Origin: Alphaproteobacteria bacterium
Lineage (GTDB): Bacteria; Pseudomonadota; Alphaproteobacteria; Bin95
Direction of reading: 5' to 3'
Length of the DNA: 64,000 nt
NCBI GenBank assembly: GCA_030833925.1
Contig: JAURGE010000007.1
Coordinates: 8,048-72,047, forward strand
The notes beneath the pieces were generated by a model. The model had not been told where the DNA came from. It searched no databases and saw only the letters and a program-made list of their open reading frames with translations. Each line of letters opens with the position of its first letter. The first letter of the stretch is position 1. Below, one piece after another: positions 4,012 to 63,930 of the stretch. The translations under genes were made by a program, and so were the position numbers.

Positions 4012-4854
4012 TTACTTTCCGCTCGAGCGCGCAAAGAACTCTAGAAGGGTAGAATTGAAAATATTTGGAGATTCCCAAAAAAGTGGATGCCCAACATCTG
4101 GTACGATCACTGACTCGGCAGAACCTATTCGTGGAATAATGTGTCGGAGTAAGGCAGGCGGCAGATATAGGTCTGCACCGCCTGTCATTAAAAGCATTGG
4201 CACCTGGTTGGACGCTAAATTCTTCCAGTTAATCTGCGCAATACGTCCTTGAACAACACGCTGTTTCTTAGGCCCAAAATTATTTAGGTGATAGATTTCA
4301 AGGAATTCCTTTACGCCGTCAGGATCAAGAGCTCGAAAGGAGGCAGAAATCTCACGTGCTTCGACTGGAAGCTCATTAAACCAGCTTGGCCGGGCTCTTT
4401 CTGATGCAATCTTATAGTCATCTTCTTCGATGCTCATAAGGCTTGATGCAACGACAGAAGAAATTGTCCGTTCGGGAAATGCCAGAGTAAAATCAAGCGC
4501 GCAGGAGCCCCCTGCAGCAGAGCCAACCACATGCACACGCTGTATACCAAAACAGTCAAGAAGAAGCGCTAAATCACCGGCCTCGGTTCCGTGGTCATTA
4601 ACGGGGCCAATTTCTGACCCAAAATATCCACGCCTTGAATAACCTATTACGCGATACCCAGCCTTGGCAAATATCGGCTGTTGTCTACTCCACGACCTAT
4701 GGTTTCCTGAATGGGGATGAATAAAAACAACTACCTCTCCATCACCGGAGGTGTCCCAAGCATACAATGCAGCACCATTTGCAAGCCGATGAATACCCTC
4801 GTACTGCTTAACCTGAATTGGTGGAGGTGGCAGGGGCAAGGCATCCACTAACAA
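4012..4854 (-). CDS. Alpha/beta-hydrolase fold protein with a non-canonical elbow (GSAAG)
   Basis: GYRVIGYSRRGYFGS, GGADLY, VGHPLFWESP; TTG start after AGGA. Confidence 0.8.
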   Translation of the reverse strand: MLVDALPLPPPPIQVKQYEGIHRLANGAALYAWDTSGDGEVVVFIHPHSGNHRSWSRQQPIFAKAGYRVIGYSRRGYFGSEIGPVNDHGTEAGDLALLLDCFGIQRVHVVGSAAGGSCALDFTLAFPERTISSVVASSLMSIEEDDYKIASERARPSWFNELPVEAREISASFRALDPDGVKEFLEIYHLNNFGPKKQRVVQGRIAQINWKNLASNQVPMLLMTGGADLYLPPALLRHIIPRIGSAESVIVPDVGHPLFWESPNIFNSTLLEFFARSSGK

Positions 4855-4897
4855 TTTCTAAATCCTGCATGACTGAATAGAGATAACTGCTGGCTAC

Positions 4898-5569
4898 TTA
4901 TTGAGGCCGATCTAGAGCCACAACATCGCCATTTTGCATAAGTAACATCCGATCGATCAGATCAATAAATAACCCATGCGCAACAACACCTGGGGTCATA
5001 TTCAGCAAAACATCCAATTCATATGGATCTTCTATTAACTCAAATGCCGCATCAATAATCCAATGGCCCTCATCGGACACAAAAGGCTTGCCATCTTGCA
5101 ATCTGATTTCGGATTTAGCCCCTAGGTCAGATATTTTTCTCAAAACCACAGAGCTTGCAAAAGGCGAAACCTCAATGGGAAGTGGGAATTTACCGAGTCT
5201 ATCAACTAATTTTGTGTCATCACCGATGTACACTACTGTCTCTGAGATACTGGCAACGATCTTTTCACGCATTAAAGCACCGCCGCCGCCCTTTATTGCA
5301 GTTAAATTGGCATCTACCTCATCAACTCCATCAACAGTAAGGTCAATTTTACTCAGAACATCTAAGCCAACAACATCAAACCCGAGCCCTAACGCCATAA
5401 CCGCTGTAGCCTCAGATGTAGCCACGCAGCGCGGTCGGAGACCCCTCTCAGCTAAGGCTTGGATAAAACAAGTAGCTGTTGAGCCGGTACCCAATCCAAG
5501 GGTCATTCCAGATTCGACAAGGTCTGCCGCAGCCTTGCCAACACGCTCTTTCTGATCTTGTTGGGACAC
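4898..5569 (-). CDS. rpiA: Ribose-5-phosphate isomerase A
   Basis: GLGTGST, DGVDE, KGGGGALMREK. Confidence 0.96.
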   Translation of the reverse strand: MSQQDQKERVGKAAADLVESGMTLGLGTGSTATCFIQALAERGLRPRCVATSEATAVMALGLGFDVVGLDVLSKIDLTVDGVDEVDANLTAIKGGGGALMREKIVASISETVVYIGDDTKLVDRLGKFPLPIEVSPFASSVVLRKISDLGAKSEIRLQDGKPFVSDEGHWIIDAAFELIEDPYELDVLLNMTPGVVAHGLFIDLIDRMLLMQNGDVVALDRPQ

Positions 5570-5652
5570 GTCTGTCTAACCATTTCCGCGTTGAGTGAAC
5601 ATATTCATTCTGCAGTATTAAAAATTTAACGCCAACAGGCTGGAGTGTGCCA

Positions 5653-7395
5653 TTAATTTGCTAACGCCGCATCCTCCAACACCAACCTAGCTTCATCCCT
5701 TCCCTGCCATGTATTAATTTCAATTCGACCGGCAACGTGAATTACGGGCGGTTTAGAGCAAATAAAGTCGCCCAAGTCCGAACCAACACTGCGAAAACAC
5801 ATTGCGGAAATCCTGGAGCTATCAGGTCCTTCTAATTGAAGCGCTAAATGCGCCTCCTTAATAATTTTAATATCTCGAACCCGAAGCCCCCCGAGTGCAA
5901 ATCTTGGTTCCGGATTACCCATTCCAAAAGGAGCCAGTCTATCTAGAGCGGTAGCCGCGGCATATGCCCCTTGCGGCCCGACGACTGCATCGATCCTCAT
6001 AGAAGACTGTGAAGCTGCTTTTTCAATACTATCAGAAATTAAATCAGATAACGCTTTAATAAAACTTGAAAAGCCGTTGTCATCTAGCCGAAAACCAGCA
6101 GCCATGTTGTGGCCACCCCCTGAGATTAATAAGCCGCTCTCACGAAGTGCAATAACTGCTGGACCAAGCGCCACACCAGGAATTGACCGACCTGAGCCGG
6201 TAGCAATTCCATTTTCAATTGACGCCACCAGGGCAGGACGCCCGAACCGTTCAACTAGGCGACTTGCAACAATACCAACTACTCCTTGCCGCCACCCCTG
6301 CCCTTTGACAGCAATAACTTTGGCCCCCTGCGCTGCCTGACTTTCTGCCTCTAAAACTGCTTCATCGAAGACAGAACGCTCTATTTGCTGACGTTCACGA
6401 TTGAGATTATCCAATTCGGCGGCAATTTTTGCAGCCTTCTCTGGATCATCCGTAGATAACAATTCAAGGCCCAAATCACTTTGGCCAATCCGCCCCCCTG
6501 CATTAATCCTTGGCCCAACGATAAAACCCATATGTGAAGCTTTTAAGCTTCCAGATACACCTGCCAACCTTAACAATTCCGCGATACCAATTTTAGGCCG
6601 TTGAGACATCGCACGAAGACCTTGGGCAACTAAAGCCCGGTTAACTCCAGTCAGAGGTGCCACATCAGCGATAGTTCCCAGTGCGACTAAATCGAGAAAA
6701 CTCAAAAGATCGATATCGCTCCCAAGTTTTCGCCTGAGAGCTACAACGAACAAAAAAACCACACCAACGGCAGCTAACTGAGTGTGAGGGCTTGTTTCAT
6801 CAGCTCTGTTTGGATTAACCACAGCATAAGCAGCGGGTGTTTCGGCTGCTCCCACATGGTGGTCGAGGACGATAACGTCTACGCCGAGGGCATTAGCGGA
6901 ATCAATCGCCTCAAATGCAGTAGCACCACAATCTAATGTGATAACTAGACTAGCGCCCATTTCTCTGAGCTTGGCGATAGCGCGAGGATTAGGGCCGTAT
7001 CCTTCTTTTTCTCTGTCTGGGACGTAAGTAACTGTATCACCACCTACTGCCTCAAGAAATCTTCGAAGCAGAGCTCCAGAAGTTGCACCATCAACATCAT
7101 AGTCGGCTAAAATTGCAATCCGCTCACTGGAGTTAAGAGCTTTAATAACACGCTCAACGGCAACATCCATATCAAGGAAATCTGACGGGTCAGGAAGTTG
7201 TTCTCTTAACCTGGGCGTCAAATACGCATCAGCATCTTCCGGACTTGAAGTGCGAGCAGCTAAAACACTAGCAACCGCGTCGGGAAGATCAAATTGTCTA
7301 GCAAGAAATTGAGCGCGCTGCGTATCTCCTGCGGCAGAGACCCAAGCCTTTCCACTCGCTGACTTGTTAACATTAAGAACGAATTCAGAGAGCAA
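5653..7395 (-). CDS. recJ: Single-stranded-DNA-specific exonuclease RecJ (start moved to TTG 7395, after GAGGAG)
   Basis: DYDVDG, DHH, PRINAGGR, GGHNMAAG, PFGMGNPEP. Confidence 0.95.
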   Translation of the reverse strand: MLSEFVLNVNKSASGKAWVSAAGDTQRAQFLARQFDLPDAVASVLAARTSSPEDADAYLTPRLREQLPDPSDFLDMDVAVERVIKALNSSERIAILADYDVDGATSGALLRRFLEAVGGDTVTYVPDREKEGYGPNPRAIAKLREMGASLVITLDCGATAFEAIDSANALGVDVIVLDHHVGAAETPAAYAVVNPNRADETSPHTQLAAVGVVFLFVVALRRKLGSDIDLLSFLDLVALGTIADVAPLTGVNRALVAQGLRAMSQRPKIGIAELLRLAGVSGSLKASHMGFIVGPRINAGGRIGQSDLGLELLSTDDPEKAAKIAAELDNLNRERQQIERSVFDEAVLEAESQAAQGAKVIAVKGQGWRQGVVGIVASRLVERFGRPALVASIENGIATGSGRSIPGVALGPAVIALRESGLLISGGGHNMAAGFRLDDNGFSSFIKALSDLISDSIEKAASQSSMRIDAVVGPQGAYAAATALDRLAPFGMGNPEPRFALGGLRVRDIKIIKEAHLALQLEGPDSSRISAMCFRSVGSDLGDFICSKPPVIHVAGRIEINTWQGRDEARLVLEDAALAN

Positions 7396-7409
7396 AAAGC
7401 AAACTCTCC

Positions 7410-8384
7410 TCAATCAAACATCGATTTTCGCTCAAAATTGTGAAAGGTCTCTATTTTACGAACAGTTCCTGTCTTGGAACGCATAACTAGGGACTGTGTC
7501 GTTACCCCTTGTCCTTCCCGACGAACACCAGCAAGCATGGAACCGCTAGTCACACCTGTCGCAGCAAACATTACATCGCCAGAGGCTAATTCTTCTAGAT
7601 TATATTTACGGTTTAAATCTTCTACACCTATCCGATGGGCGCGCCCGCGCTCATCGTCGTTCCTAAAAATTAAACGTCCTTGAAATTGCCCGCCGATGCA
7701 ACGAAGGGCTGCAGCGGCAAGCACGCCCTCGGGAGCACCGCCAGATCCCATATAAATATCTACACCGCTGTCGGGATTTGTCGTCGCTATGACGCCAGAC
7801 ACATCACCATCAGAAATAAGCATGATGCGCGCACCAGAATTTCTGACCTCTTCAATCAATTCTTGATGACGGGGACGATCAAGTATGCACGCCACTAAAT
7901 CCTGTATTTTTACACCTCTGGCATCCGCCAGATTATGAAGATTTTGAGTAGGCGTATTATCAAGATCGATCACACCGGCTGGAAGCCCTGGTCCAACACC
8001 TATTTTATCCATGTAGACATCCGGAGCATGCAAAAAGCCCCCATCATCTGCCATAGCAATAACCGCTAGAGCATTTGCTCCGCCCTTTGCGGTAATCGTC
8101 GTTCCTTCTAAAGGGTCCAACGCAATGTCTATCTTAGGACCTTTACCAGTGCCAACTTTCTCTCCGATGAAAAGCATTGGCGCTTCATCGCGCTCGCCCT
8201 CTCCAATCACAACCTTGCCATCTATGTCTAAGGAATTGAGTGCTTGCCTCATCGCATCAACAGCGGCCTGGTCTGCAGCCTTTTCATCGCCACGCCCCAT
8301 TAGGCGGGATGCAGCGAGCGCCGCAAATTCTGTAACACGTACTGCCTCAAGCGCCAGGTTACGGTCCATCTTTTCTAATGACAT
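7410..8384 (-). CDS. glpX: Class II fructose-1,6-bisphosphatase
   Basis: VIGEGERDEAPML, DPLEGT, GGAPEGV. Confidence 0.97.
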   Translation of the reverse strand: MSLEKMDRNLALEAVRVTEFAALAASRLMGRGDEKAADQAAVDAMRQALNSLDIDGKVVIGEGERDEAPMLFIGEKVGTGKGPKIDIALDPLEGTTITAKGGANALAVIAMADDGGFLHAPDVYMDKIGVGPGLPAGVIDLDNTPTQNLHNLADARGVKIQDLVACILDRPRHQELIEEVRNSGARIMLISDGDVSGVIATTNPDSGVDIYMGSGGAPEGVLAAAALRCIGGQFQGRLIFRNDDERGRAHRIGVEDLNRKYNLEELASGDVMFAATGVTSGSMLAGVRREGQGVTTQSLVMRSKTGTVRKIETFHNFERKSMFD

Positions 8385-16399: not shown

Positions 16400-17626
16400 C
16401 TACTTCCACTTCAATTTTGGTTCAAAACCAAAACATCGAGAAGCATTCATCCCAAGAATATTCCGCTTAGCCTCTTCGTCTAACCAATCAATTTCTGCGA
16501 TAACCCGCGGCGCATCAAAATCGAAATGAGGCCAATCAGAGGCGTAAAGCAACTGAGTCTTAGCGTTTATCATCTCAAACGTAGCCTTCAATCCCACCTC
16601 ACTGGATTTCTCCATTGGTTGACAGGTGTACCAGCAGTTTTGACGCATATAGTCCGACGGCATTTGCTTCAAAAGTGGCGCCTCTGACATTCTCATTAAA
16701 TATTGGTCATCTAGCCGCTGCATTACAAAAGGAACCCAGGCAAGACCACTTTCAATCCAAACAGATTTTAGTTTTGGAAAACGCTCCGGGATCCCATTTA
16801 AAATCCAATTTGTCATGTGAACAATGTTGCACCATGCAAAACCAAGGGCATGCATGCCAAGGAAACTATTGCAGGTAGCTAAAGACGGGTCTTGCCAATG
16901 ATAACCGGCGTGAAATGCTATCGGCTTTCCAGTTTCTTCGATCATTCGATAAAGCCTCATATACTCGTTGGCATGAACTGGCTTGTATCGTGTTGATGTC
17001 ACAGTAAACCCAATGACACCGGGCTTATCGGCAAAGTCTTCAACTGTACGGCAGGCATCTTCAGGAGAATTAAACGGGAGCAGAGCTAATGCACCAATGC
17101 CGTCATCGCCTGGGGTTACTCGCTCTGTCAGCCAGCGGTTATAGGCACGCGTGAGGAGAACCTCCATCTCGACCTGAGGATGCATTCCAAGAAATAGCAT
17201 CGGTGTTGGGAAAACGACCATTTTGTCGATGCACATTGCCTCCATGGCCCGGCGAGTTAGGACGACATCTCTATGCACGTCCCCCTCATCTACCTTCTCA
17301 CGCTGCCCAGACTGATGAGGAATGCGTCCCCCAACATCTTGATATCGGAGTCCAAGATCACCGTTCAGTCCGTAAGGCGGAGCACCAAAACGCTCCTTCT
17401 GGTAAGTCAACGCTTGGTGACGAACTACTGGGTCCTCAATGTGCTCGATAACTTCGTGCCAATGCACGGTTTCCAGATGATGAGCATCGATATCGCAGAT
17501 AAACCAGTCTGCAAAACCCATTTTGCGCGCGTCCTCGCGCGCTGGCGCGAGATAATCACGAGTATCGGTGTAGACATCCATCTCTTGGACAGACATTGCC
17601 TTCGATGAAATGATATTGGCGTCCAT
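16400..17626 (-). CDS. Amidohydrolase_2-fold metalloprotein; candidate dimetal monooxygenase
   Basis: DIDAHH, AFHAG, WIESG, ASDWPHFD; GAGGAG RBS; same operon as a Rieske ferredoxin. Confidence 0.85.
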   Translation of the reverse strand: MDANIISSKAMSVQEMDVYTDTRDYLAPAREDARKMGFADWFICDIDAHHLETVHWHEVIEHIEDPVVRHQALTYQKERFGAPPYGLNGDLGLRYQDVGGRIPHQSGQREKVDEGDVHRDVVLTRRAMEAMCIDKMVVFPTPMLFLGMHPQVEMEVLLTRAYNRWLTERVTPGDDGIGALALLPFNSPEDACRTVEDFADKPGVIGFTVTSTRYKPVHANEYMRLYRMIEETGKPIAFHAGYHWQDPSLATCNSFLGMHALGFAWCNIVHMTNWILNGIPERFPKLKSVWIESGLAWVPFVMQRLDDQYLMRMSEAPLLKQMPSDYMRQNCWYTCQPMEKSSEVGLKATFEMINAKTQLLYASDWPHFDFDAPRVIAEIDWLDEEAKRNILGMNASRCFGFEPKLKWK

Positions 17627-17662
17627 TGTGCGTCTCCTCGATAGAAGGGCTTGTGGCCGATA

Positions 17663-18031
17663 TTAATCTTTTAATGGCTCCGGTGGGATATCATGATAAT
17701 CTTCTGGCCGGCGACGCGACCAGAGGCCAAATTCCATTGGTCCAAGACGTAGCGCTCGCAGAATTTCAGTGACTGACGTTAGAGCTTCGGTTGGCGTTAC
17801 GATTTCATCACCTTGGCCTAAAACTGCTTTTGGACTGCGCATCTCTCCATCAGCTTTAGCAGCGTAAAGTTTTATAGCCGCAGTCATGATACGCGCTACT
17901 GCCACATCAGAAACACGCCCAGCATCACCTTCAGAGAGAAGTGCCTTTGCATCCTCCCATACTCTATTGGAAATAACCTCTAAATCATTAGCTGGGTCAT
18001 TTCCCTGTGAATTGGGTTCAGACGACGACAT
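17663..18031 (-). CDS. Small hypothetical helical protein between the Rieske and amidohydrolase genes
   Basis: ATG 18031 overlaps the end of the Rieske gene; amphipathic segments ARIMTAAIKLYAAKA and VTPTEALTSVTEILRAL. Confidence 0.75.
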   Translation of the reverse strand: MSSSEPNSQGNDPANDLEVISNRVWEDAKALLSEGDAGRVSDVAVARIMTAAIKLYAAKADGEMRSPKAVLGQGDEIVTPTEALTSVTEILRALRLGPMEFGLWSRRRPEDYHDIPPEPLKD

Positions 18032-18392
18032 AAACATCACCATCTTGAACCTGCGTTGAGTACCCTTCGAGATTCATAATTTTTACTGCTGACGCACCAG
18101 CAAATTCCCCTGTACGAATATCAAACTCAAGGCCATGCCATGGGCAGACAATGTGGGTCGTCGAGTCATCAAAATCACGCCCACGACTTTTTAAATCCGC
18201 GTCCAGCACTTCAAGTACTTTATTGTAGATGCGCCCCTGGCAGACTGGGCCACCTTGATGGGGGCATTTATTTTTCCAAGCAAAAAATTCATTGCCTATA
18301 CGAAAGACGCCGATCTGTTCCCCCTCAGTTTCAACCACGATCTTCCCACCGTCCTGAATATCAGCGACACGGCCCACACGAATTGTCGGCAT
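18018..18392 (-). CDS. Rieske [2Fe-2S] ferredoxin
   Basis: CPH-X37-CPWH; AGGA RBS. Confidence 0.92.
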   Translation of the reverse strand: MPTIRVGRVADIQDGGKIVVETEGEQIGVFRIGNEFFAWKNKCPHQGGPVCQGRIYNKVLEVLDADLKSRGRDFDDSTTHIVCPWHGLEFDIRTGEFAGASAVKIMNLEGYSTQVQDGDVYVVV

Positions 18393-18574
18393 TTATCGTC
18401 CTATCGAATTTAATGATCGATGAGCAGCATTGTCTCCATTAAGTGATGATCAATCAACTAAATGCTGACTATTAATCATTGATTGCACACAAAAACGAAT
18501 ATTTTTCGATGAAACCAATCTGAGTGGTTCAGAAAACCAACATTTAACCTTTGAAATAAGCTCGGTAAAAATAA

Positions 18575-20593: not shown

Positions 20594-20968
20594 GTGAGAA
20601 GCTATAGCGGTAGCTGTCACTGCGGGACAGTAAAAATCAAAATCTCTAAGCCGTCCCCAATATCGATGATCACCGAGTGCAACTGCTCGATCTGTCAAAA
20701 GAAAGGGATATTGCATACTGCAACAGAGCAAAATGAGCTGACGCTGGTTAAAGGAAAAGACGCGTTAACACTCTATCAATTTGGTTCCGGCGTAGCCGAA
20801 CATCAGTTCTGTAAGATTTGCGGCATTCACGTATTTGGGAGGCCGAGGAGTGCGCCTGATCGACTCACAGTAAATGTGCGCTGCCTCGATGACTTCGAAG
20901 AAATTCTGTCCTCAGCGAAAATTTCACGATTTGATGGACAAAACCATCCAAAAGACCAGTCACCATAA
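20594..20968 (+). CDS. GFA/CENP-V family Zn-binding protein
   Basis: GSCHCG, CNCSIC, FCKICG. Confidence 0.9.
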   Translation: MRSYSGSCHCGTVKIKISKPSPISMITECNCSICQKKGILHTATEQNELTLVKGKDALTLYQFGSGVAEHQFCKICGIHVFGRPRSAPDRLTVNVRCLDDFEEILSSAKISRFDGQNHPKDQSP

Positions 20969-21039
20969 CGCAGCAAAGGCTTTTGTCTGGCAGTGGCCGC
21001 AATAGAGGCCTCAGTTGAATTATCTAGCCAGAAACAGTC

Positions 21040-21525
21040 TCATTTTGGCCTTAGATAATGCATTTCATCACCTGTCCAGCCAACTCCATTTGGGACGGTA
21101 TAATAAAACTCAATGGTCATCTCTTGAAATCGCCATCCCAAATCTGTTCGGCGATAAACATCATCATAGCGACCAGACACCAAATAAGAGACCCCAAATC
21201 GGCCATAACGAGCTTCTAGATAAGAGTGACCGGTCCCTCTATCACCATCTACAAAGATGCGATGGCTATGAATCATTTGTTTTATAAAAAATCGTTCTCT
21301 CTCGCCCATTCCTTCAAAGGTTTTGGCTATTTCAACTTGGCCACGACTTTCTGATAAGTATCCGAGCTTAACGTAGGCATCCTCAGTGAAAAGTTCTGCT
21401 ATTTCTCCATAGCGCCCATCATTAATCGCGGCATGATAGGAGTCTCGCAGGGCTCGTATTTCTTCTCGATCTTCGAGCAATTGAATTCGCGCCTGAAGTC
21501 GCGCGATCATGCTATCATCTGCCAT
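21040..21525 (-). CDS. NTF2/SnoaL-like fold protein
   Basis: LEDREEIRAL..Y, LFTEDA, GRYDDVYRRTDLGWRF. Confidence 0.88.
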   Translation of the reverse strand: MADDSMIARLQARIQLLEDREEIRALRDSYHAAINDGRYGEIAELFTEDAYVKLGYLSESRGQVEIAKTFEGMGERERFFIKQMIHSHRIFVDGDRGTGHSYLEARYGRFGVSYLVSGRYDDVYRRTDLGWRFQEMTIEFYYTVPNGVGWTGDEMHYLRPK

Positions 21526-21589
21526 AGTGGCTACCCTATCCCCACTTTAAAATCGTTAAGTCTCTAGAACTATAGCAAGGATTTTTCCA

Positions 21590-22402
21590 ATGCGCCTTTG
21601 GTATCAAAGTGTTACCCGGGAAGGCTCTTTCCCTAAATATCGGGCAACACTCCAACGACTGATTGATGCTGCGAGCGGTCCAGAGGTATCCGTCGATGTT
21701 CATGGAATTCTTAGACAAGGCGGAACTGGCGACCAATATCGCTATCTCGCCTTTTTGGAGACGGTTGAAATACTAGAAAATGTCCACCGCGCTCAGGAAC
21801 AAGGCTACGATGCCTTTTTGATAGGAAATTTGTTCGATCCCGGGCTACGCGAGGCAAGAGAGATCGCAGATATCCCCATAATGAGCCTTGGTGAAACAGT
21901 AATGCAAACAGCTGAGACCATGGGTGAAAAATTTGGCTTTGTCTCAATAAATAAAAAATTCGAACCTCGCCTTTGGGATGTTCTCCACCGTCGTCGTCTT
22001 TCCGATAAGGTAGCTAAAATATCATCCATGGAAGTGCCATCTATGGCTGAACTCGAAGCTGCAGGTGACAACGGGCAAGCAACGAAAGCTCTGCTAGACA
22101 GATTTATGACTGCTGCAAACGAAACGGTAGAATCTGGGGCTGAAGTAGTTCTTGCTGCTGGTGGGGTGGTGATGGCTATTGTTTCGGATCAAGGAATGAA
22201 CAAAACAAGCGCAGGTGCTCCAATCGTTAATGGGATAGCGGCATTAATTCAGCGCGGAAAAGCAGCTGTTGAACTCCGTCGGTTAATGGGTGGTGCCTAC
22301 ACGTCCCCCGTTTTAACATTTTCCAAACCAAGTCCCAATGAAGCTGTTGGTTTCCGCAGCGCTTATGGGCAACGCGTATATCCTGGTGTTGAAGGAGAAT
22401 AA
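21590..22402 (+). CDS. Asp/Glu/hydantoin racemase-family protein lacking catalytic cysteines
   Basis: AQEQGYDAFLIGNLFDPGLREAREIADIPI, GAEVVLAAGG. Confidence 0.8.
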   Translation: MRLWYQSVTREGSFPKYRATLQRLIDAASGPEVSVDVHGILRQGGTGDQYRYLAFLETVEILENVHRAQEQGYDAFLIGNLFDPGLREAREIADIPIMSLGETVMQTAETMGEKFGFVSINKKFEPRLWDVLHRRRLSDKVAKISSMEVPSMAELEAAGDNGQATKALLDRFMTAANETVESGAEVVLAAGGVVMAIVSDQGMNKTSAGAPIVNGIAALIQRGKAAVELRRLMGGAYTSPVLTFSKPSPNEAVGFRSAYGQRVYPGVEGE

Positions 22403-33114: not shown

Positions 33115-33447
33115 ATGAACGCCAATTCTGATCAAAAAATTCAAAAATTACTTGATCCTTCAGCAATGGAAGTTGTGATTGAACTTCAGAAGGCTGAGCT
33201 AGACCGACTACTTCTCGAGAATAGGCGTCTTCATGAAAGGATCGACCAGCTACTTCAATTGCAAGAGCGGGAACAGGTGTTGCGCCAACAACTACAGTCC
33301 CTGCTCGGCCATTCTCCTAAAACATCTCAAATTCCAAATAAGCTGATAAATGACAAAGCCCTTCAATCGGCCCAAACACGCTATGACAGATTGAAGGATA
33401 CCTTAGGCTTACTCCTAGTGGCTCTTGAAAAGCGGACTAGAACTTAA
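33115..33447 (+). CDS. Hypothetical coiled-coil protein (start uncertain, 33079-33115)
   Basis: Leu/Gln/Glu heptads ELDRLLLENRRLHERIDQLLQLQ; only ORF filling the gap. Confidence 0.6.
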   Translation: MNANSDQKIQKLLDPSAMEVVIELQKAELDRLLLENRRLHERIDQLLQLQEREQVLRQQLQSLLGHSPKTSQIPNKLINDKALQSAQTRYDRLKDTLGLLLVALEKRTRT

Positions 33448-33835
33448 CGATTACGTAATCACCTTCGGTAGACACGTCGACTGTCTCGGCATGCATTTCT
33501 TTGCCATCCCCAACTTCAATGTCATAAGAATGGGTTTTCCAACGTTTTGGATCAAACCGAGATTTTCCAGTCCTGAGATCAAACTCCCAGCCATGCCACG
33601 GGCATCTGACAATCTCACCACCGCGACTATAATTGTAGCATCCTGGCTTATTGGCTTCTACTAGCCCAATCACAACACCCTCCGAGAGCAGTCCCCCCAT
33701 ATGCGGACAGGCATCCCTTAGGCCAAAATATTCTCCATCAACATTAAAGATGGCAACTTTTCGACCTGCCACCTCAACGCTAACACGTGTGCCCGGAGGA
33801 ATATCCTCCACTTTCGCCGCAATATGCTTCGCCAT
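33437..33835 (-). CDS. Rieske [2Fe-2S] ferredoxin
   Basis: CPH-X32-CPWH. Confidence 0.92.
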   Translation of the reverse strand: MAKHIAAKVEDIPPGTRVSVEVAGRKVAIFNVDGEYFGLRDACPHMGGLLSEGVVIGLVEANKPGCYNYSRGGEIVRCPWHGWEFDLRTGKSRFDPKRWKTHSYDIEVGDGKEMHAETVDVSTEGDYVIVKF

Positions 33836-33839
33836 GCCC

Positions 33840-34949
33840 TCAGATGCCGTAAAGAGAACGTGCGTTACCTAAAAAGAAACCCTCTTTTTGCTCATCAGTT
33901 GCACGCGGCAAAGGTATACGTGTCGGGTCATCAAAATCCCAATGAGGATAATCAGTTGCAAATAATAATTTATCCCAACCAATCCACTCAAAGACGTCTT
34001 TTAGATGGCCACGACGATCAGGCTCTTCAAAAGGCTGTGTAGTGTACCAAATATGCTCAGCCATATATTCAGAGGGTGGTCGCTTCACGTGGGGTAGCTC
34101 TTGTCTATTCTGAGCCCAAATCCTGTCCAAGCGCCATGAAAGCGACGGAGCCCAGGCAAACCCAGCTTCAACAATGATCAATTTCAATTTCGGCCAACGC
34201 TCAAAGACACCTTCTAGCACCATTGATGAAACCAAGGATTGCGCCGATTGTGAATGCCCCACCATGTCTTCTGTATAATAACTGGGCCAACCACCTCCAG
34301 TGACCGGCGTACCGCCAAACCCGAAGGCATGCACAGCAAGGGGAAGATTTGCATCCTGACAGGCACTAAAAATTGGCCAATAGCGGCGGTTACCCATTGG
34401 CTCTGATGTCCTGATTAACATGAAAGCCTGAATGAAATTTGTATCGCCGGCGCGACGCTCTATCTCCTGGGCCGAAAGGAAACCATCTTCATATGGAAGA
34501 CACACAGAACCCTTTAAGCGAGCCTCTTTGGAAGTCCATTCTGCAATCTGCCAATCATTAATTGCTTTACAGTAAGCAGCAGCAAAGTCCGGGTTCTGAA
34601 GTCCCTGCCCTGACTTTAATGGATTCAAAACACCCAGCTGAACATTATATGGGTCTAGGTGATGCTTTCGCATAAATTCTAGGTCTGAACCAGGTTTCTC
34701 ACCGTTTGGTCCATACGCATCACGGCGCGCCGCATCAGGCTGCCCTTTTGGATAGGCTGGCCCCGCTTGATATGGCTGTCGTAGCAACATCCCATAGGTT
34801 TGGTAATGGTCTTGCCAGCGCTTTGAGAGATAGGGGAAAATCTCCCTCTCAACCGACTTAGGACTTGGATGAATGTCGCAGTCCGCTATTGCAAGTTTCT
34901 GATTTGCAGGCTTCGTGGCCGAAGCTTGGCCGATGGTTTCGACAGTCAC
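33840..34949 (-). CDS. Amidohydrolase_2-fold protein; candidate catalytic dimetal monooxygenase subunit
   Basis: DCDIH, AVHAFG, IVEAG, TDYPHWD; GTG start overlapping the upstream stop. Confidence 0.85.
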   Translation of the reverse strand: MTVETIGQASATKPANQKLAIADCDIHPSPKSVEREIFPYLSKRWQDHYQTYGMLLRQPYQAGPAYPKGQPDAARRDAYGPNGEKPGSDLEFMRKHHLDPYNVQLGVLNPLKSGQGLQNPDFAAAYCKAINDWQIAEWTSKEARLKGSVCLPYEDGFLSAQEIERRAGDTNFIQAFMLIRTSEPMGNRRYWPIFSACQDANLPLAVHAFGFGGTPVTGGGWPSYYTEDMVGHSQSAQSLVSSMVLEGVFERWPKLKLIIVEAGFAWAPSLSWRLDRIWAQNRQELPHVKRPPSEYMAEHIWYTTQPFEEPDRRGHLKDVFEWIGWDKLLFATDYPHWDFDDPTRIPLPRATDEQKEGFFLGNARSLYGI

Positions 34950-36016
34950 GTTACGGCCTCCTTTAATCTCGGATAAGTCGCAAGAGGATTATCATAGCAG
35001 ATTTTATTCTGAAGTGCTCTCGAGATTCCATCAGGAATCGCGTTATTTCCCTCGTAGTGCCAATGCGGATAGTCACTAGAGAATAGAAGCATTTCATCAC
35101 TGTCAAAATGCTCAATTAATTTTTCTAAGTCATCTGGCCTAGGTGGTGCATCATAAGGTTGTATTGTCAGTCGAACATGGTCCTTGGCAATTTCAAGCGG
35201 ATGCCTGTCCACCCAAGGGGTTTCCATCCTCAAACCACGCCAAAACTTACCAAGCCTCCAAAGGTGTGCAGGTAACCAAGCGAAGCCGGACTCTAAAAGA
35301 ACAACCTTTAATTCAGGGAATTCCGCAAAAACTCCCTCCGTGATCAAGCTAGTGAGTGTTGTTTGGAATGCCTGTGACTGTGCAGCTGAGTCTTCGGCAT
35401 AATAAGTAGGCCAACCAACTGACGTTACGGGATGCCTATAAGCACTGCCCGCATGAATACCTACAGGAAGGCCATTCCTCTCTGCAGCCCGATAAATTGG
35501 CCAGTAGCGGCGACGCCCTAAAGGCATTTCATCCATTACCAGCATTAAAACCTGAACAAACCGCTTATCGACAGCCATGCGATCTATCTCGGCTGCGGCA
35601 TAATCAGGATTTTGTGGAGAAACGACGATAGAAGCGCGAAGGCGCGGCTCTTTATCCAACCATTCTGTGGCAATCCAATCATTCACCGCCCGAGCAAATG
35701 CGTAAGCCATATCTTCGGTATACAAAAGTTGAACACCGTAAAGACAGTTGCAGATGGCAAATTTCGTACCAAAACCATCCAGCGCTTCTTTTCTAAGTCG
35801 CACTAAGTCTTGGCCAGCCTTACCCACTTCCGGCTTCCAGTCAGGACGGGCTGAAATAGGAGCGTTCTTAGGGTAGCTGATTGAATCTAATTCATGCACA
35901 CCTCGCTGGATCACCATATCACGCCAATGATCATCCAGATATGGCAGCAAAGCCTTGATACTAGGCACCGCTGGATGAAGATCACAGTCTATAGCGCCAA
36001 CCGGCGGGTAAGGCAT
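34946..36016 (-). CDS. Amidohydrolase_2-fold protein; candidate partner subunit
   Basis: DCDLH, GIHAG, LLESG, SDYPHWH. Confidence 0.85.
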   Translation of the reverse strand: MPYPPVGAIDCDLHPAVPSIKALLPYLDDHWRDMVIQRGVHELDSISYPKNAPISARPDWKPEVGKAGQDLVRLRKEALDGFGTKFAICNCLYGVQLLYTEDMAYAFARAVNDWIATEWLDKEPRLRASIVVSPQNPDYAAAEIDRMAVDKRFVQVLMLVMDEMPLGRRRYWPIYRAAERNGLPVGIHAGSAYRHPVTSVGWPTYYAEDSAAQSQAFQTTLTSLITEGVFAEFPELKVVLLESGFAWLPAHLWRLGKFWRGLRMETPWVDRHPLEIAKDHVRLTIQPYDAPPRPDDLEKLIEHFDSDEMLLFSSDYPHWHYEGNNAIPDGISRALQNKICYDNPLATYPRLKEAVT

Positions 36017-36019
36017 TTT

Positions 36020-36916
36020 TTAGTCCTCCTCAGGCCTGGACCGCCATTCCTCAGCGTCGAATGCTACATGCTCTCCAAAATGATGAATGGTCGTATCAGT
36101 AGGAAGGGTCATTTTCGAGAATTGTGTTTCCGCCGAAGATAGATGAACAACGCGAGACTGGGTCTGAAGCCATTTTGTTGCGGGTAGAAGTGTCGACTGC
36201 CGCTGAGTCACATCCATCAAAAAATAATGATGTGGAATCACTACTTTTGGTCGCAATCGGTTAATTATGCTGTCCACCATTTCAAATCCCATTACATGCT
36301 GGCTATCGTCAACAGGCAGCAAAGCAACGTCTACGTTACCAAGTTTTTCCCATACATAATCTGGGGGATTATGCCTGTTATCGCCCCAGTGAAGAAATCG
36401 AAGACCACCAGTTTCAATAACAACTATTACATTATCCCATGATCGTGGATTATCTGGCGGCTCGATATCAACACCGTTGAAACGTTTGTGAATTAGCTTG
36501 AAATCATATGTGGCGGCACTTGAGTCGGTAGCATGTTTATCGGCAATGCCATCAATCAAAACATCAAGAAAACTGTATTGGCCGATTGGCCTATCCAAAA
36601 GAACACTTGCGTCTAACCTATCGAGAGCATCGTGATCAAAGTGAGCATGGGTTGAAATTCCTATGTCAATCTTTGTGAGTGGCATATCCTTAAAATACCA
36701 GTCCCAAGTCCTACTTGGGTGGTTTCGCCAGGGATCAATCATTATTGATAGGCCCTGTGGCGTCGTCAGCCTAAACGCACTCGATCCGAAGTAAGCAATT
36801 TTTACAATGCCAAGATCTTCGGGTTTTCCAATACCTGACTCTTGTTTAAGCATCATTGAGTTGTGATTGCTCGCGCGAAGCCAAGATGTAAGACCCGAAT
36901 TAAGCTTACGCATCAT
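36020..36916 (-). CDS. Metallo-beta-lactamase-fold hydrolase
   Basis: IMIDPW, STHAHFDH, HWGD, VIPHHY. Confidence 0.88.
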   Translation of the reverse strand: MMRKLNSGLTSWLRASNHNSMMLKQESGIGKPEDLGIVKIAYFGSSAFRLTTPQGLSIMIDPWRNHPSRTWDWYFKDMPLTKIDIGISTHAHFDHDALDRLDASVLLDRPIGQYSFLDVLIDGIADKHATDSSAATYDFKLIHKRFNGVDIEPPDNPRSWDNVIVVIETGGLRFLHWGDNRHNPPDYVWEKLGNVDVALLPVDDSQHVMGFEMVDSIINRLRPKVVIPHHYFLMDVTQRQSTLLPATKWLQTQSRVVHLSSAETQFSKMTLPTDTTIHHFGEHVAFDAEEWRSRPEED

Positions 36917-37609
36917 TTAGTCCTCGAAAATCGCAACAGCTCGAATTGGACTAGCTGTTCCTCCCCTAATTTTTAGCGGAAAACCTGCAAAACGGAAGCG
37001 ACCCTTTCCAACCAACTCCTCTAAGTTCCATAGGCATTCAATGTGGGTGATGCCCCGCTCCCCACAAGCCAGATGGGCTTTATAATTTGCGGCGCCTTCA
37101 GGAGCAGGACTAATAGCTTCAACACCAAATTGACGTATTTTTTTATCCGCAAGCCAATGAACTGAAGCAACATGGAGGCCTGGAAAGTCGTGTTGATACC
37201 CAGGCTTCCCCCATAATCGAGCATTAACGCTCATGTGTATCAATACGGTATCACCCTCAAGGATCTCTTCCCCAGTGGCCTTAAGTGCTGCTTCCATCTC
37301 ATCAACCGTTATTTCATGGCGTAACGGGACATCGGAAAGATCTAGGCAAAGGCCGCCTGTATAAAAATTTTCTAATGGAATTTCGTCTATAGAGGCTGCC
37401 CCAGGTCGTGGGTCAAAATGAATTGGAGCGTCTATATGGGTTCCCGCATGGTCAGACATGGAAATCGACATTGCTTTAGAGGAAAATTTAATTCCACCCG
37501 CTTCCTTCACCTCTGAATGGTCGTTCCACGTTGTAATGATCACCGGAGGGTGGGCGGGATGCGCGGGGGTTCGATGATAGAGCTCTCTTGAAAGGTCAAT
37601 TATACGCAT
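36917..37609 (-). CDS. Cyclase-family (kynurenine formamidase-like) metal hydrolase
   Basis: IIDLS, HAGTHIDAP, FPLKIRGGTASPIRA; ATG 37609 after GGAG. Confidence 0.9.
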   Translation of the reverse strand: MRIIDLSRELYHRTPAHPAHPPVIITTWNDHSEVKEAGGIKFSSKAMSISMSDHAGTHIDAPIHFDPRPGAASIDEIPLENFYTGGLCLDLSDVPLRHEITVDEMEAALKATGEEILEGDTVLIHMSVNARLWGKPGYQHDFPGLHVASVHWLADKKIRQFGVEAISPAPEGAANYKAHLACGERGITHIECLWNLEELVGKGRFRFAGFPLKIRGGTASPIRAVAIFED

Positions 37610-37653
37610 CCGCATCTCCAGCAATAAAAGGAAGTCATTAAAACTATAGATCC

Positions 37654-37671
37654 CCGTCACAAAGATTACAT
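37654..37671 (+). promoter_or_regulatory. Putative Pho box upstream of phnN
   Basis: CCGTCAC-AAAG-ATTACAT with 11-bp period, plus in-phase AAGTCAT 22 bp upstream. Confidence 0.5.
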
Positions 37672-37721
37672 AATCTTGGGTGCAAATAGGGAATCGATAC
37701 AATAACGAAAAGTGACAATGG

Positions 37722-38303
37722 ATGACTGGCTTAGCGCCATTAATCTTGGTTGTTGGTCCAAGCGGAGCCGGCAAAGATACCCTTCTTGAGGGAGCCGCCC
37801 GCGAACTCGAACCAACAGGCAATTTCAGTTTTGCGAAACGAGTGATAACCCGCCCTGTTACTCCTGAGGGCGAACAACACATCGAGATGAGCACAGACGA
37901 GTTTAATCAAAAGGAAGCAGAGGGATATTTTCTTCTATCATGGCGCGCGCATGGCTATTGTTATGGTATCTTAGCCGAGCCGACAGAAACACTTAGGACA
38001 CGCGGGTGCGCTGTAGTGGCAAGTGTTTCTAGAACAGTAATAGATGACGCAAAGTCTCGCCATCAACCTGTCCATGTTATCGTCGTAACAGCACCCAAAA
38101 CTATTCTTGCAAGGCGTTTAGCCGATCGGGGCCGCGAACCCGAAGCTGATGTTTTAGCGAGACTTGAGCGCTCTGATGCTATCGACGTTTGCGGTCAAAA
38201 CGTAACGATTATTGAAAATATTTCTGATGTAAAAAGTGGCATCAGACAGATGATATCAGCATTAGAAGCTGCTTCATCCTTTGAATGGAAATCGACGGAT
38301 TAA
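37722..38303 (+). CDS. phnN: Ribose 1,5-bisphosphate phosphokinase
   Basis: VVGPSGAGKD, RVITR, WRAHGYCYG, RLADRGRE. Confidence 0.92.
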   Translation: MTGLAPLILVVGPSGAGKDTLLEGAARELEPTGNFSFAKRVITRPVTPEGEQHIEMSTDEFNQKEAEGYFLLSWRAHGYCYGILAEPTETLRTRGCAVVASVSRTVIDDAKSRHQPVHVIVVTAPKTILARRLADRGREPEADVLARLERSDAIDVCGQNVTIIENISDVKSGIRQMISALEAASSFEWKSTD

Positions 38304-62510: not shown

Positions 62511-63930
62511 GCCTACTGGTTTCTTAGAGTTATCTCGTTCTGAAAGAGGATATCTGCCGGTTGAAGATCGGTTAAAAAATTACAACGAATTCGTTGTCCC
62601 TCTTTCTGAAACCGAAGTCAAAAGCCAGGGTGCCCGCTGTATGGATTGCGGCATACCGTTCTGCCACAACGGCTGCCCGGTGAATAACCAAATCCCTGAC
62701 TGGAATGACCTTGTCTATGAGGGAGAATGGCATCGGGCGCTAGTGAACCTTCACTCGACGAATAATTTTCCCGAATTCACAGGGCGCATTTGCCCAGCTC
62801 CTTGTGAAGAGTCTTGTGTACTTAACATAAATGATAATCCAGTCGCCATTAAAACGATTGAGTGTGCAATCGTCGATAAAGGTTTTGAAAACGGTTGGAT
62901 CAATCCTGAGCCACCTGAAAAAAAGACAGGCAAACGCGTTGCTGTTGTGGGGTCCGGCCCGGCAGGCTTGACTACAGCTCAGCAATTAGCAAGAGCAGGA
63001 CATGATGTTGTTCTCTTCGAGAAAAATGATCGGATAGGCGGTCTTCTTAGATACGGCATTCCAGATTTCAAAATGGAGAAACATCTTATCGACCGCCGCA
63101 TTGAACAGATGGCGGCGGAAGGTGTGGAATTCCGGACCGGGGTCAATGTTGGCATTGACATAAAATCGGCCGATTTAATGTCTGAGTTCGACGCCATAGT
63201 ATTATCCGGAGGAGCGGAAGCTCCCCGTGATCTGCCCGTTGAGGGCCGTAAACTAGATGGCGTTCATTTTGCCATGGAATTCCTGCCCCAACAGAATAAG
63301 CGTGTGGCTGGTGACATTGTACCAGACGACATTTCAATACTGGCAAATGGCAAGAAAGTACTTGTTATTGGTGGTGGCGATACTGGTTCAGACTGCATTG
63401 GAACGTCAAACCGTCACGGAGCTATTGGCGTTACCCAGCTCGAGATCATGCCCAAACCACCAGTGAAGGAAGATAAACCACTGGTATGGCCAGATTGGCC
63501 AATCAAGCTTCGCACTTCAACCAGCCATGACGAAGGTGCAGAGCGGAAATTTGCTGCATCCACCCTCGAATTTCAGGGTGAAAACGGAAAGGTGACAGGG
63601 GCGACCATCTCGGAAGTAGAGTGGACTAAAAGTGGGCCCCAGCCCATAAAGGGAACCGAGCAACAAATTGAATGCGACCTAGTCTTGCTAGCAATGGGTT
63701 TTGTTGGGCCTGTGAAGCAGGGCTTAATAGAAGAATTAGGCGTGGACCTCGACCAGCGCGGTAACGTTTTCGCCGATGATTTCACCTACAAAACTTCTGT
63801 AGATAAGGTCTTCACTGCTGGTGATATGCGCCGCGGTCAATCGCTTGTCGTATGGGCAATTCGGGAAGGACGGCAGTGCGCCCGCGCGGTCGACGAGTAC
63901 CTAATGGGCGCCACAAGACTCCCTCGTTAA
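62503..63930 (+). CDS. gltD: Glutamate synthase small subunit
   Basis: [42 protein letters not shown]. Confidence 0.98.

Follow-up and report, generated by a model that had tools for sequence, protein, structure and literature searches.

A conserved gene trio of a Rieske ferredoxin, a small helical protein and an amidohydrolase-related dinuclear oxygenase in Alphaproteobacteria

The three-gene locus

A stretch of 64,000 nucleotides (nt) from an Alphaproteobacteria bacterium (contig JAURGE010000007.1), henceforth the window, carries on its minus strand a closely packed set of three genes, henceforth the trio, which encode a Rieske [2Fe-2S] ferredoxin, a small helical protein of a family without a known name and an amidohydrolase-related dinuclear oxygenase (ARO). 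The motifs, the sequence comparisons, the predicted fold and the conserved neighbourhood establish both the membership of the large protein in the ARO family and the linkage of the three genes, and it is the small protein and not the enzyme class that gives the finding its value.

The Rieske gene (18018..18392, minus strand, 124 amino acids [aa]) is recognized by its PF00355 match and its cluster ligands, and the ARO gene (16400..17626, minus strand, 408 aa) by PF04909 and the ARO motifs. Between them lies the small gene (17663..18043, minus strand), whose longest open reading frame (ORF) codes for 126 aa and overlaps that of the Rieske gene in the ORF list of the window. Since its homologues begin at MSSS in the alignment, we place the start at the ATG at 18031, which probably gives a protein of 122 aa and an overlap of 14 nt with the end of the Rieske gene. 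The gap between the small gene and the ARO gene is 36 nt, with a GGAG ahead of the latter. The limits, the tight packing and the common direction of the three genes agree with the first-pass annotation of this DNA, and, because all three are conserved elsewhere, we regard each of them as a genuine gene and none as a chance ORF.

Upstream of the Rieske gene, an AT-rich intergenic region (18393..18574, minus strand) is presumed, from its sequence only, to bear the promoter, and a terminator-like hairpin with a T-run, belonging to the upstream LysM gene, can be read at 18585-18563. A scan for terminators found 1 terminator-like site where 2.6 were expected from shuffled sequence, and a scan for promoters found 3 promoter-like sites where 3.6 were expected; because neither exceeds the shuffled expectation, the single-operon reading is based on how closely the genes are packed and on their conservation. 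All three genes are covered in part, at 90-100% likeness, by contigs from four RNA-library runs (three studies). The junction between the Rieske and the small gene is bridged by two contigs, in two of the three studies, and that between the small and the ARO gene by one. The share of sampled words found in the RNA runs is small (0.05-0.14). As RNA libraries may hold DNA, as a contig spanning two genes is proof neither of a single transcript nor of transcription, and as uncovered bins carry no meaning, these contigs offer weak support for expression.

The large protein and its ferredoxin

AROs are named and described in a paper of 2024, in which candidates were mined by searching for PF04909 genes with a small Rieske gene as neighbour, diiron sites were shown in four candidates, and SfbO was found to carry out C-H hydroxylation with a preference for Mn/Fe (PMC10811679). 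In a second paper, of 2026, an ARO is defined as a PF04909 protein with an N-terminal D-x-H motif and a C-terminal D-x-P-H-x-D/E motif that has about 200 residues or more before it, and the superfamily is put at about 17,000 UniProt sequences (PMC13154177). In the published ARO work, 3,307 sequences were found via a neighbouring Rieske gene (PMC10811679; PMC13154177).

Every sequence feature named in this definition is found in the large protein of the trio. It matches PF04909 (Amidohydro_2) at 1.3e-22, with a score of 81.4 bits (cut-off 26.4), and its translation contains both D47-A48-H49 (nt 17480-17488) and D364-W-P-H367-F-D369-F370 (nt 16517-16537), with 363 residues preceding the second motif. 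Furthermore, H239 (nt 16910-16912) and E292 (nt 16751-16753) align in the profile alignment to conserved His and Glu residues of 8SM7, SfbO, AibH2 and 8SM9, these ligand columns being taken from the descriptions in the papers and not from coordinates. We propose D47, H49, H239, E292, D364 and H367 as putative metal ligands, D369 as a candidate second-sphere residue and F368 and F370 as the accompanying aromatic residues; the D-x-H, H, E and DWPHFD elements pointed out by the first-pass annotation are thus all in place. None of the proposed ligands varies among 14 orthologues (63-92% identity), in which the middle residue of D-x-H is Ala except for one Ser. In the profile of these orthologues DIDAHH aligns, over a weak local stretch, to DTDIHH of 8SM9, and the AlphaFold2 (AF2) model has a predicted strand at residues 44-45, directly before D-x-H. 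The D-x-P-H-x-D motif is present in 80 of 83 ORFs of the clade, and of the three ORFs that lack it two are from loci truncated at the edge of a contig, while the other one (L074) is shorter (379 aa).

The comparison with proteins of known structure points in the same direction. In the PDB sequence search, the ARO matches are led by 8SM7 (7e-32) and include AibH2 (6M1W_B, 1e-23, the third-best match), 8SM9, SfbO (8SM6) and 8SM8, down to 1.8e-19. LigW (1e-10), PtmU3 (2e-9) and ACMSD (2e-6) rank lower, and a profile search with the 14 orthologues returned the same order, with the AROs ahead of the decarboxylases. The entries titled 'G. y4' (8SM7), 'A. ca' (8SM8) and 'C. fi' (8SM9) in the PDB, which belong to TruffO, are taken to be the PMC10811679 proteins from Geobacillus, Afipia and Cytobacillus. 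The AF2 model of the large protein, with a predicted local distance difference test (pLDDT) score of 72.2 and a predicted template modelling (pTM) score of 0.79, shows alternating strands and helices, and in a Foldseek search with this model against the PDB the 12 matches listed through rank 20 are all ARO entries (TMq 0.63-0.69), the first decarboxylase standing at rank 21.

An ordinary non-redox, mononuclear PF04909 hydrolase, hydratase or decarboxylase, with the Rieske gene as an unrelated neighbour, would suit the annotation of PF04909 as 'amidohydrolase', the RefSeq name of the orthologues ('amidohydrolase family protein') and the decarboxylases found further down the PDB match lists. We consider this very improbable: both ARO motifs are present and invariant, whereas no characterized hydrolase or decarboxylase of the fold carries them (PMC13154177); the AROs rank above all decarboxylases both by sequence and by fold; and the Rieske gene is adjacent in 60 of 64 loci, to which four relocated cases, described below, are added. 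Motifs, sequence ranking and predicted fold thus support the assignment of the large protein to the dimetal-oxygenase type and not to the hydrolase or decarboxylase type, as had been suggested at first pass. What has to be given up is the further suggestion of a candidate new monooxygenase: because the ARO superfamily is already defined in print by the same motifs, and has been mined through Rieske neighbours (PMC10811679; PMC13154177), the enzyme is a further member of a published kind and not a new enzyme class.

The partner gene encodes a protein that matches PF00355 at 4.2e-14 and also PF13806 and PF22543, while among NCBIfam models there are just sub-threshold matches to ferredoxin subunits. 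Its iron-sulfur cluster is bound by C43-P-H45 (nt 18258-18266) and C83-P-W-H86 (nt 18135-18146), so that the C-x-H ... C-x-x-H pattern of a Rieske-type ferredoxin, a small soluble protein, is contained within 124 aa; its nearest relatives in the PDB are oxygenase ferredoxins, such as that of CarAc. Rieske genes go with the low-potential, Mn-using class of AROs (PMC13154177).

According to the same source, metal preference can be read from the residues gamma1 (the x of D-x-H), gamma2 (at the end of strand 2) and gamma4 (after PH), and the Mn-preferring, low-potential subclass has a hydrophobic gamma1, a hydrophilic gamma2 and an aromatic gamma4 (Table 1 of PMC13154177). In the trio ARO, gamma4 is F368, whose aromatic side chain fits this rule, and gamma5 is F370, a position at which the clade has F, M, W or A, as expected of a hydrophobic or aromatic gamma5 beside an adjacent Rieske gene. 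Different from the Val/Ile of the studied Mn types, which are the characterized low-potential AROs, and from the Ser/Asp of Fe2 (diiron) types, gamma1 is Ala, and it is A, S, C or G over the 83 clade ORFs, never Val or Ile. Alanine is not hydrophobic on the octanol scale. The placement of gamma2 is uncertain. In the alignment with 8SM7 the invariant F139 lies opposite the Thr of 'AVLTG', and F139 at gamma2 would be the Fe2-type state.

The closest structural relatives, the Rieske-linked, low-potential AROs SfbO (8SM6) and the orphan TruffO proteins (8SM7, 8SM8 and 8SM9), belong to the same fold family and have the same ligand set, D-x-H / H / E / D-x-P-H-x-D, as the trio ARO, and they share with it aromatic residues after PH, an adjacent small Rieske gene and the absence of a local reductase (PMC10811679; PMC13154177). 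Identity over the fold alignment is, however, just about 20-25%, and the sulfonate-binding R232 and R235 of SfbO correspond here to A260 and F263, in an ungapped alignment that runs through a low-confidence loop. By word searches, the third conserved gene goes unmentioned in the main texts of the SfbO/TruffO papers (PMC10811679; PMC13154177).

The 2-aminoisobutyrate hydroxylase of Rhodococcus, AibH1H2/AibG/AibF, is likewise a multicomponent system with a Rieske ferredoxin, but AibH2 depends on AibH1, a PF04909 partner without catalytic function, and is served by a reductase of its own, whereas the trio unit contains one PF04909 gene, with neither a second, non-catalytic one beside it nor a reductase gene. 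In place of an AibH1-like partner, the operon of the trio encodes a helical protein of 12-14 kDa.

A second, different ARO system lies on the minus strand of the same window (33437-37894), with no homologue of the small protein. Its AibH1H2-like set (33437-36016) consists of a Rieske ferredoxin (33437-33835), an ARO with DYPHWD (33840-34949) and an AibH1-like PF04909 protein without the motif (34946-36016), and these are followed by a gene of the metallo-beta-lactamase (MBL) fold (36020-36916) and by a cyclase-family gene (36917-37894). D-x-H begins at residue 25 in this second ARO and at residue 47 in the trio ARO, which has an N-terminal extension of about 22 residues. Tandem PF04909 pairs accompanied by a Rieske gene, with 27-28% identity to the trio ARO and a look similar to AibH1H2/AibG, were also observed at four further loci (L069-L072, from genomes G001-G004). 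As a whole, the source genome (2.78 Mb, 90.9% complete) has 14 PF04909 and 10 Rieske-domain matches, many for its size.

Conservation of the trio and the small protein family

To follow the trio across genomes, loci of the small protein were drawn from contigs representing one genome per species, and the trio was placed on them by tblastn. This gave 64 loci, nearly all from Alphaproteobacteria (Rhodospirillales, Thalassobaculaceae, SAR116, Hyphomicrobiaceae, Mesorhizobium and Prosthecomicrobium), and in 60 of them the order Rieske, small, ARO is kept on one strand, three of the 60 being cut by contig ends. Identities are 65-98% for the full-length ARO, 54-87% for the small protein and 44-80% for the Rieske protein. 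The middle gene, which the first-pass annotation had taken for an extra component, is thus real and conserved, and so is the Rieske linkage on which that annotation had leaned. The small gene usually overlaps or abuts the Rieske gene, the called ORFs of the small and the ARO gene are separated by a median of 19 nt, and every examined genome with the small gene also has a clade ARO and a Rieske gene. In the single full-trio locus whose record title is not proteobacterial (L058, titled Candidatus Angelobacter sp.), the record is a metagenome bin, for which mis-binning and gene transfer are indistinguishable.

The association was also counted in other ways. In an even sample of 401 genomes from the class, 10 genomes have the ARO (E <= 1e-100); the small protein occurs in 9 genomes, each of them one of these ten. 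In the phylum sample, 2 of 401 genomes match, the source genome included, and both extra copies stand in Rieske-small-ARO trios. A wider ARO profile led to paralogue loci, of which 12 were fetched; in 9 of these a Rieske gene and a small gene stand side by side next to one or two AROs, though not always in the same order. Counted from the ARO, the small gene is in the locus at 17 of 20 places; over all fetched loci the figure is 72 of 79 clade-ARO loci, a count that is biased by the fact that most of these loci were found via the small gene. More distant Rieske-linked AROs, namely the second system of the window, four AibH1H2-like loci and a haloarchaeal pair, lack the small gene. Some paralogue loci (L075, L078 and L082) hold two tandem clade AROs that flank or follow one Rieske-small pair, and both copies keep D-x-H and D-x-P-H-x-D, unlike AibH1/AibH2.

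Carriers of the clade are found in culture (Neorhizobium, Mesorhizobium, Aminobacter and Phaeobacter), with the genes on plasmids or chromids. In cultured strains RefSeq annotates the trio as 'Rieske 2Fe-2S domain-containing protein', 'hypothetical protein' and 'amidohydrolase family protein', and in Aminobacter niigataensis the order is ARO, small, Rieske and then an FAD-dependent oxidoreductase.

Neither Pfam nor NCBIfam nor the PDB offers a match to the small protein, with nothing below E 0.2 in the single-sequence search of the PDB. In a large protein database, 319 of 356 candidates are homologues of it, whose names, where given, are just 'hypothetical protein' and in none of which a Pfam domain is found. 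When 1.84 billion cluster representatives were searched with a profile, the family grew to 216 clusters at 50% identity (E <= 1e-3). No fused form is among the best 150 of these 216 representatives, which are all 55-166 aa long, and Pfam gave nothing above its cut-off in ten distant members. Further searches were negative as well: Foldseek with the predicted model found no PDB match at E <= 0.001, the profile search of the PDB returned just two designed helical proteins (E 0.12 and 0.66), and the ESM Atlas returned one 'hypothetical protein' cluster with a score of 0.77, below the meaningful level.

The AF2 model places helices at residues 17-38, 46-64 and 84-97. The C-terminal 45 residues are nearly invariant in the close subfamily, about as conserved as the ARO itself, and in the wide family W108 is the sole invariant residue, while L59, K63, P73 and T85 come close to invariance. 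The wide family has no conserved set of Cys, His or acidic (carboxylate) residues, which speaks against a part of the small protein in redox chemistry or metal carriage. In the main texts of the ARO papers the terms 'hypothetical', 'small protein' and 'accessory' do not occur (PMC10811679; PMC13154177), nor do 'third' and 'effector' in that of PMC10811679, and the supplements may already show the gene or the protein. Judging from its sequence and linkage, we propose the small protein as a putative third component, dedicated to one ARO clade and undescribed in the main texts of both papers.

Neighbouring genes and the proposed role of the third component

In the window, the trio is flanked by the housekeeping genes plsY, pyrB, pyrC, a LysM protein gene and a LOG-family gene. 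Past the LOG gene (20594-22402) there are GFA-family, SnoaL-like and Asp/Glu/hydantoin-racemase-family genes and then a putative short-chain dehydrogenase ORF; no link of these genes to the trio was found.

The ORFs of the 64 loci were clustered and 20 representatives searched against Pfam, with longest-ORF calling that errs on some genes in GC-rich loci. Beyond the trio, no neighbour is common to more than 18 of the 64 loci, this number being reached by two short-chain dehydrogenase/reductase (SDR) genes. In SAR116 and Rhodospirillaceae the neighbours comprise major facilitator superfamily (MFS) transporters, an altronate/galactarate-dehydratase-like gene, a GCV_T folate-binding protein, the two SDRs and a TauD-family gene. 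The neighbours in other lineages are quite different: molybdenum-hydroxylase subunits directly downstream of the trio in Hyphomicrobiaceae, a P450 at one locus, a thiamine pyrophosphate (TPP) enzyme with tripartite tricarboxylate (TTT) transporters in Neorhizobium and protocatechuate-type genes in Aminobacter. Because neighbouring genes change between lineages, an assignment of pathway or substrate from them was rejected and no pathway can be named.

These neighbours bear on the type of oxidation. Instead of plain hydroxylation, the ARO could perform a desaturation, an oxidative decarboxylation or, by way of a hydroxylated species that is unstable, an N- or O-dealkylation, all of which known AROs catalyse, SfbO being an N-dealkylating enzyme and BarH-like enzymes decarboxylating oxidatively (PMC10811679; PMC13154177). 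The GCV_T, TauD-family and MFS genes near some SAR116 and Rhodospirillaceae trios would suit a methylated small metabolite, but the GCV_T and TauD clusters each occur in a minority of loci (8 of 64 in either case), other lineages have the different surroundings just listed, and the neighbours in the window are housekeeping genes. On balance, we judge such an alternative oxidation somewhat unlikely.

The absence of a local reductase, already noted at first pass, holds for the three families searched. PF14759 (Reductase_C) is absent from the source genome (at 90.9% completeness), the two genome matches of PF00175 (NAD_binding_1) are both on contigs other than that of the trio, and the sole PF07992 (Pyr_redox_2) match on the trio contig is about 45 kb off, at about 62935-63870 of the window. 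In the genome as a whole there are 51 PF07992 matches; a reductase partner could not be assigned.

With a probability of about two in three, we read the trio as a single transcription unit encoding an ARO-type oxygenase that depends on O2 and two metals, works with a Rieske ferredoxin and has the small protein as a dedicated third component. The 408-aa TIM barrel would bind two metals (Fe and/or Mn) through D47, H49, H239, E292, D364 and H367. Single electrons would reach this metal site from the Rieske ferredoxin, which may dock near F368 and F370 and would itself be served by a reductase whose gene lies elsewhere; once reduced, the site would activate O2 and oxidize a C-H bond of a small substrate. 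The small protein would most likely act as a non-redox subunit or effector, binding the ARO, the ferredoxin or both via its invariant C-terminal segment. Metal binding, the electron path, the O2 chemistry and the contacts of the small protein are all inferred.

Several observations weigh against this reading. In 4 of the 64 genomes the small gene lies apart from the ARO, beside a pyridoxal phosphate (PLP) decarboxylase gene, and the same four genomes have an ARO orthologue of 72-75% identity that is directly preceded by a Rieske gene and has no small gene there. At three paralogue ARO loci (47-57% identity), which make up 3 of the 20 ARO places, neither a Rieske nor a small gene occurs within about 3 kb. 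The AF2 model of the small protein is weak (pLDDT 66.6) and falls below 50 across the most conserved stretch, residues 101-113, and the absence of conserved Cys, His and carboxylate residues leaves the role of the protein unreadable from sequence. To these are added the changing neighbourhoods described above and the gamma residues around the metal site, whose signature is mixed and would give the use of Mn/Fe about even odds.

As regards the exceptional loci, in three of them (L020, L030 and L037, at about 4450-7500) the small gene stands between a PLP decarboxylase gene of the ornithine/diaminopimelate/arginine type and a conserved ORF of about 335 aa without a Pfam match, while L028 has, as called, neither of these and shares just the downstream ORF of 249 aa.

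The relocated genes also bear on a simpler arrangement, in which ARO and ferredoxin form a two-part system and the small gene is merely co-transcribed, as an assembly or metal-delivery helper, an expression regulator or a gene with an unrelated role, outside the working enzyme. Besides the four genomes, a further one has the small gene 5.8 kb from the Rieske-ARO pair; solved AROs such as SfbO are active in vitro without such a small protein (PMC10811679); and the fold of the small protein is poorly predicted when it is modelled alone. We nevertheless regard this arrangement as unlikely, since no examined genome has the small gene without the clade ARO and a Rieske gene, the small gene is mostly packed against the Rieske gene and close to the ARO gene, its C-terminal 45 residues match the ARO in conservation, and the protein has neither a match to a DNA-binding family nor a metal-ligand set. 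The low pLDDT over the most conserved residues, 101-113, would be in keeping with a segment that takes up its fold upon binding a partner. The prediction of a complex of ARO and small protein (score 0.00, mark 0.32) was returned as 'no answer', without controls, and says nothing either way.

Small cofactor-less effector or gamma subunits, such as MmoB, TmoD and MmoZ, are encoded in operons of two-metal (diiron) monooxygenases fed by a ferredoxin or reductase. It is possible to hypothesize, tentatively and with somewhat less than an even chance, that the oxygenase cannot work without the small protein, a cofactor-less third subunit or effector of this sort that would define a distinct three-component class of AROs in Alphaproteobacteria, bind through its C-terminal segment TPTEALT...LRALRLGPMEFGLWSRRRP and gate either the delivery of electrons by the Rieske ferredoxin or the access of substrate. 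Such a protein would do for a TIM-barrel oxygenase what effector proteins do for diiron monooxygenases built on a four-helix bundle. The analogy is functional only, as no similarity in sequence or fold was found in the PDB searches or with Foldseek, and the oxygenase scaffold is a TIM barrel here and a four-helix bundle in those systems.

AROs are a recently recognized, very large and mostly orphan class of C-H-oxidizing enzymes, some of which use Mn/Fe over Fe2. To the published rules the clade described here adds a conserved third protein without a known family and a combination of mixed metal-preference residues, an unusual second-sphere signature, with a Rieske partner, and both points can be tested directly, since the clade occurs in cultured, tractable strains. 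If the small protein is needed for activity, it would have to be included when such orphan AROs are expressed and assayed.

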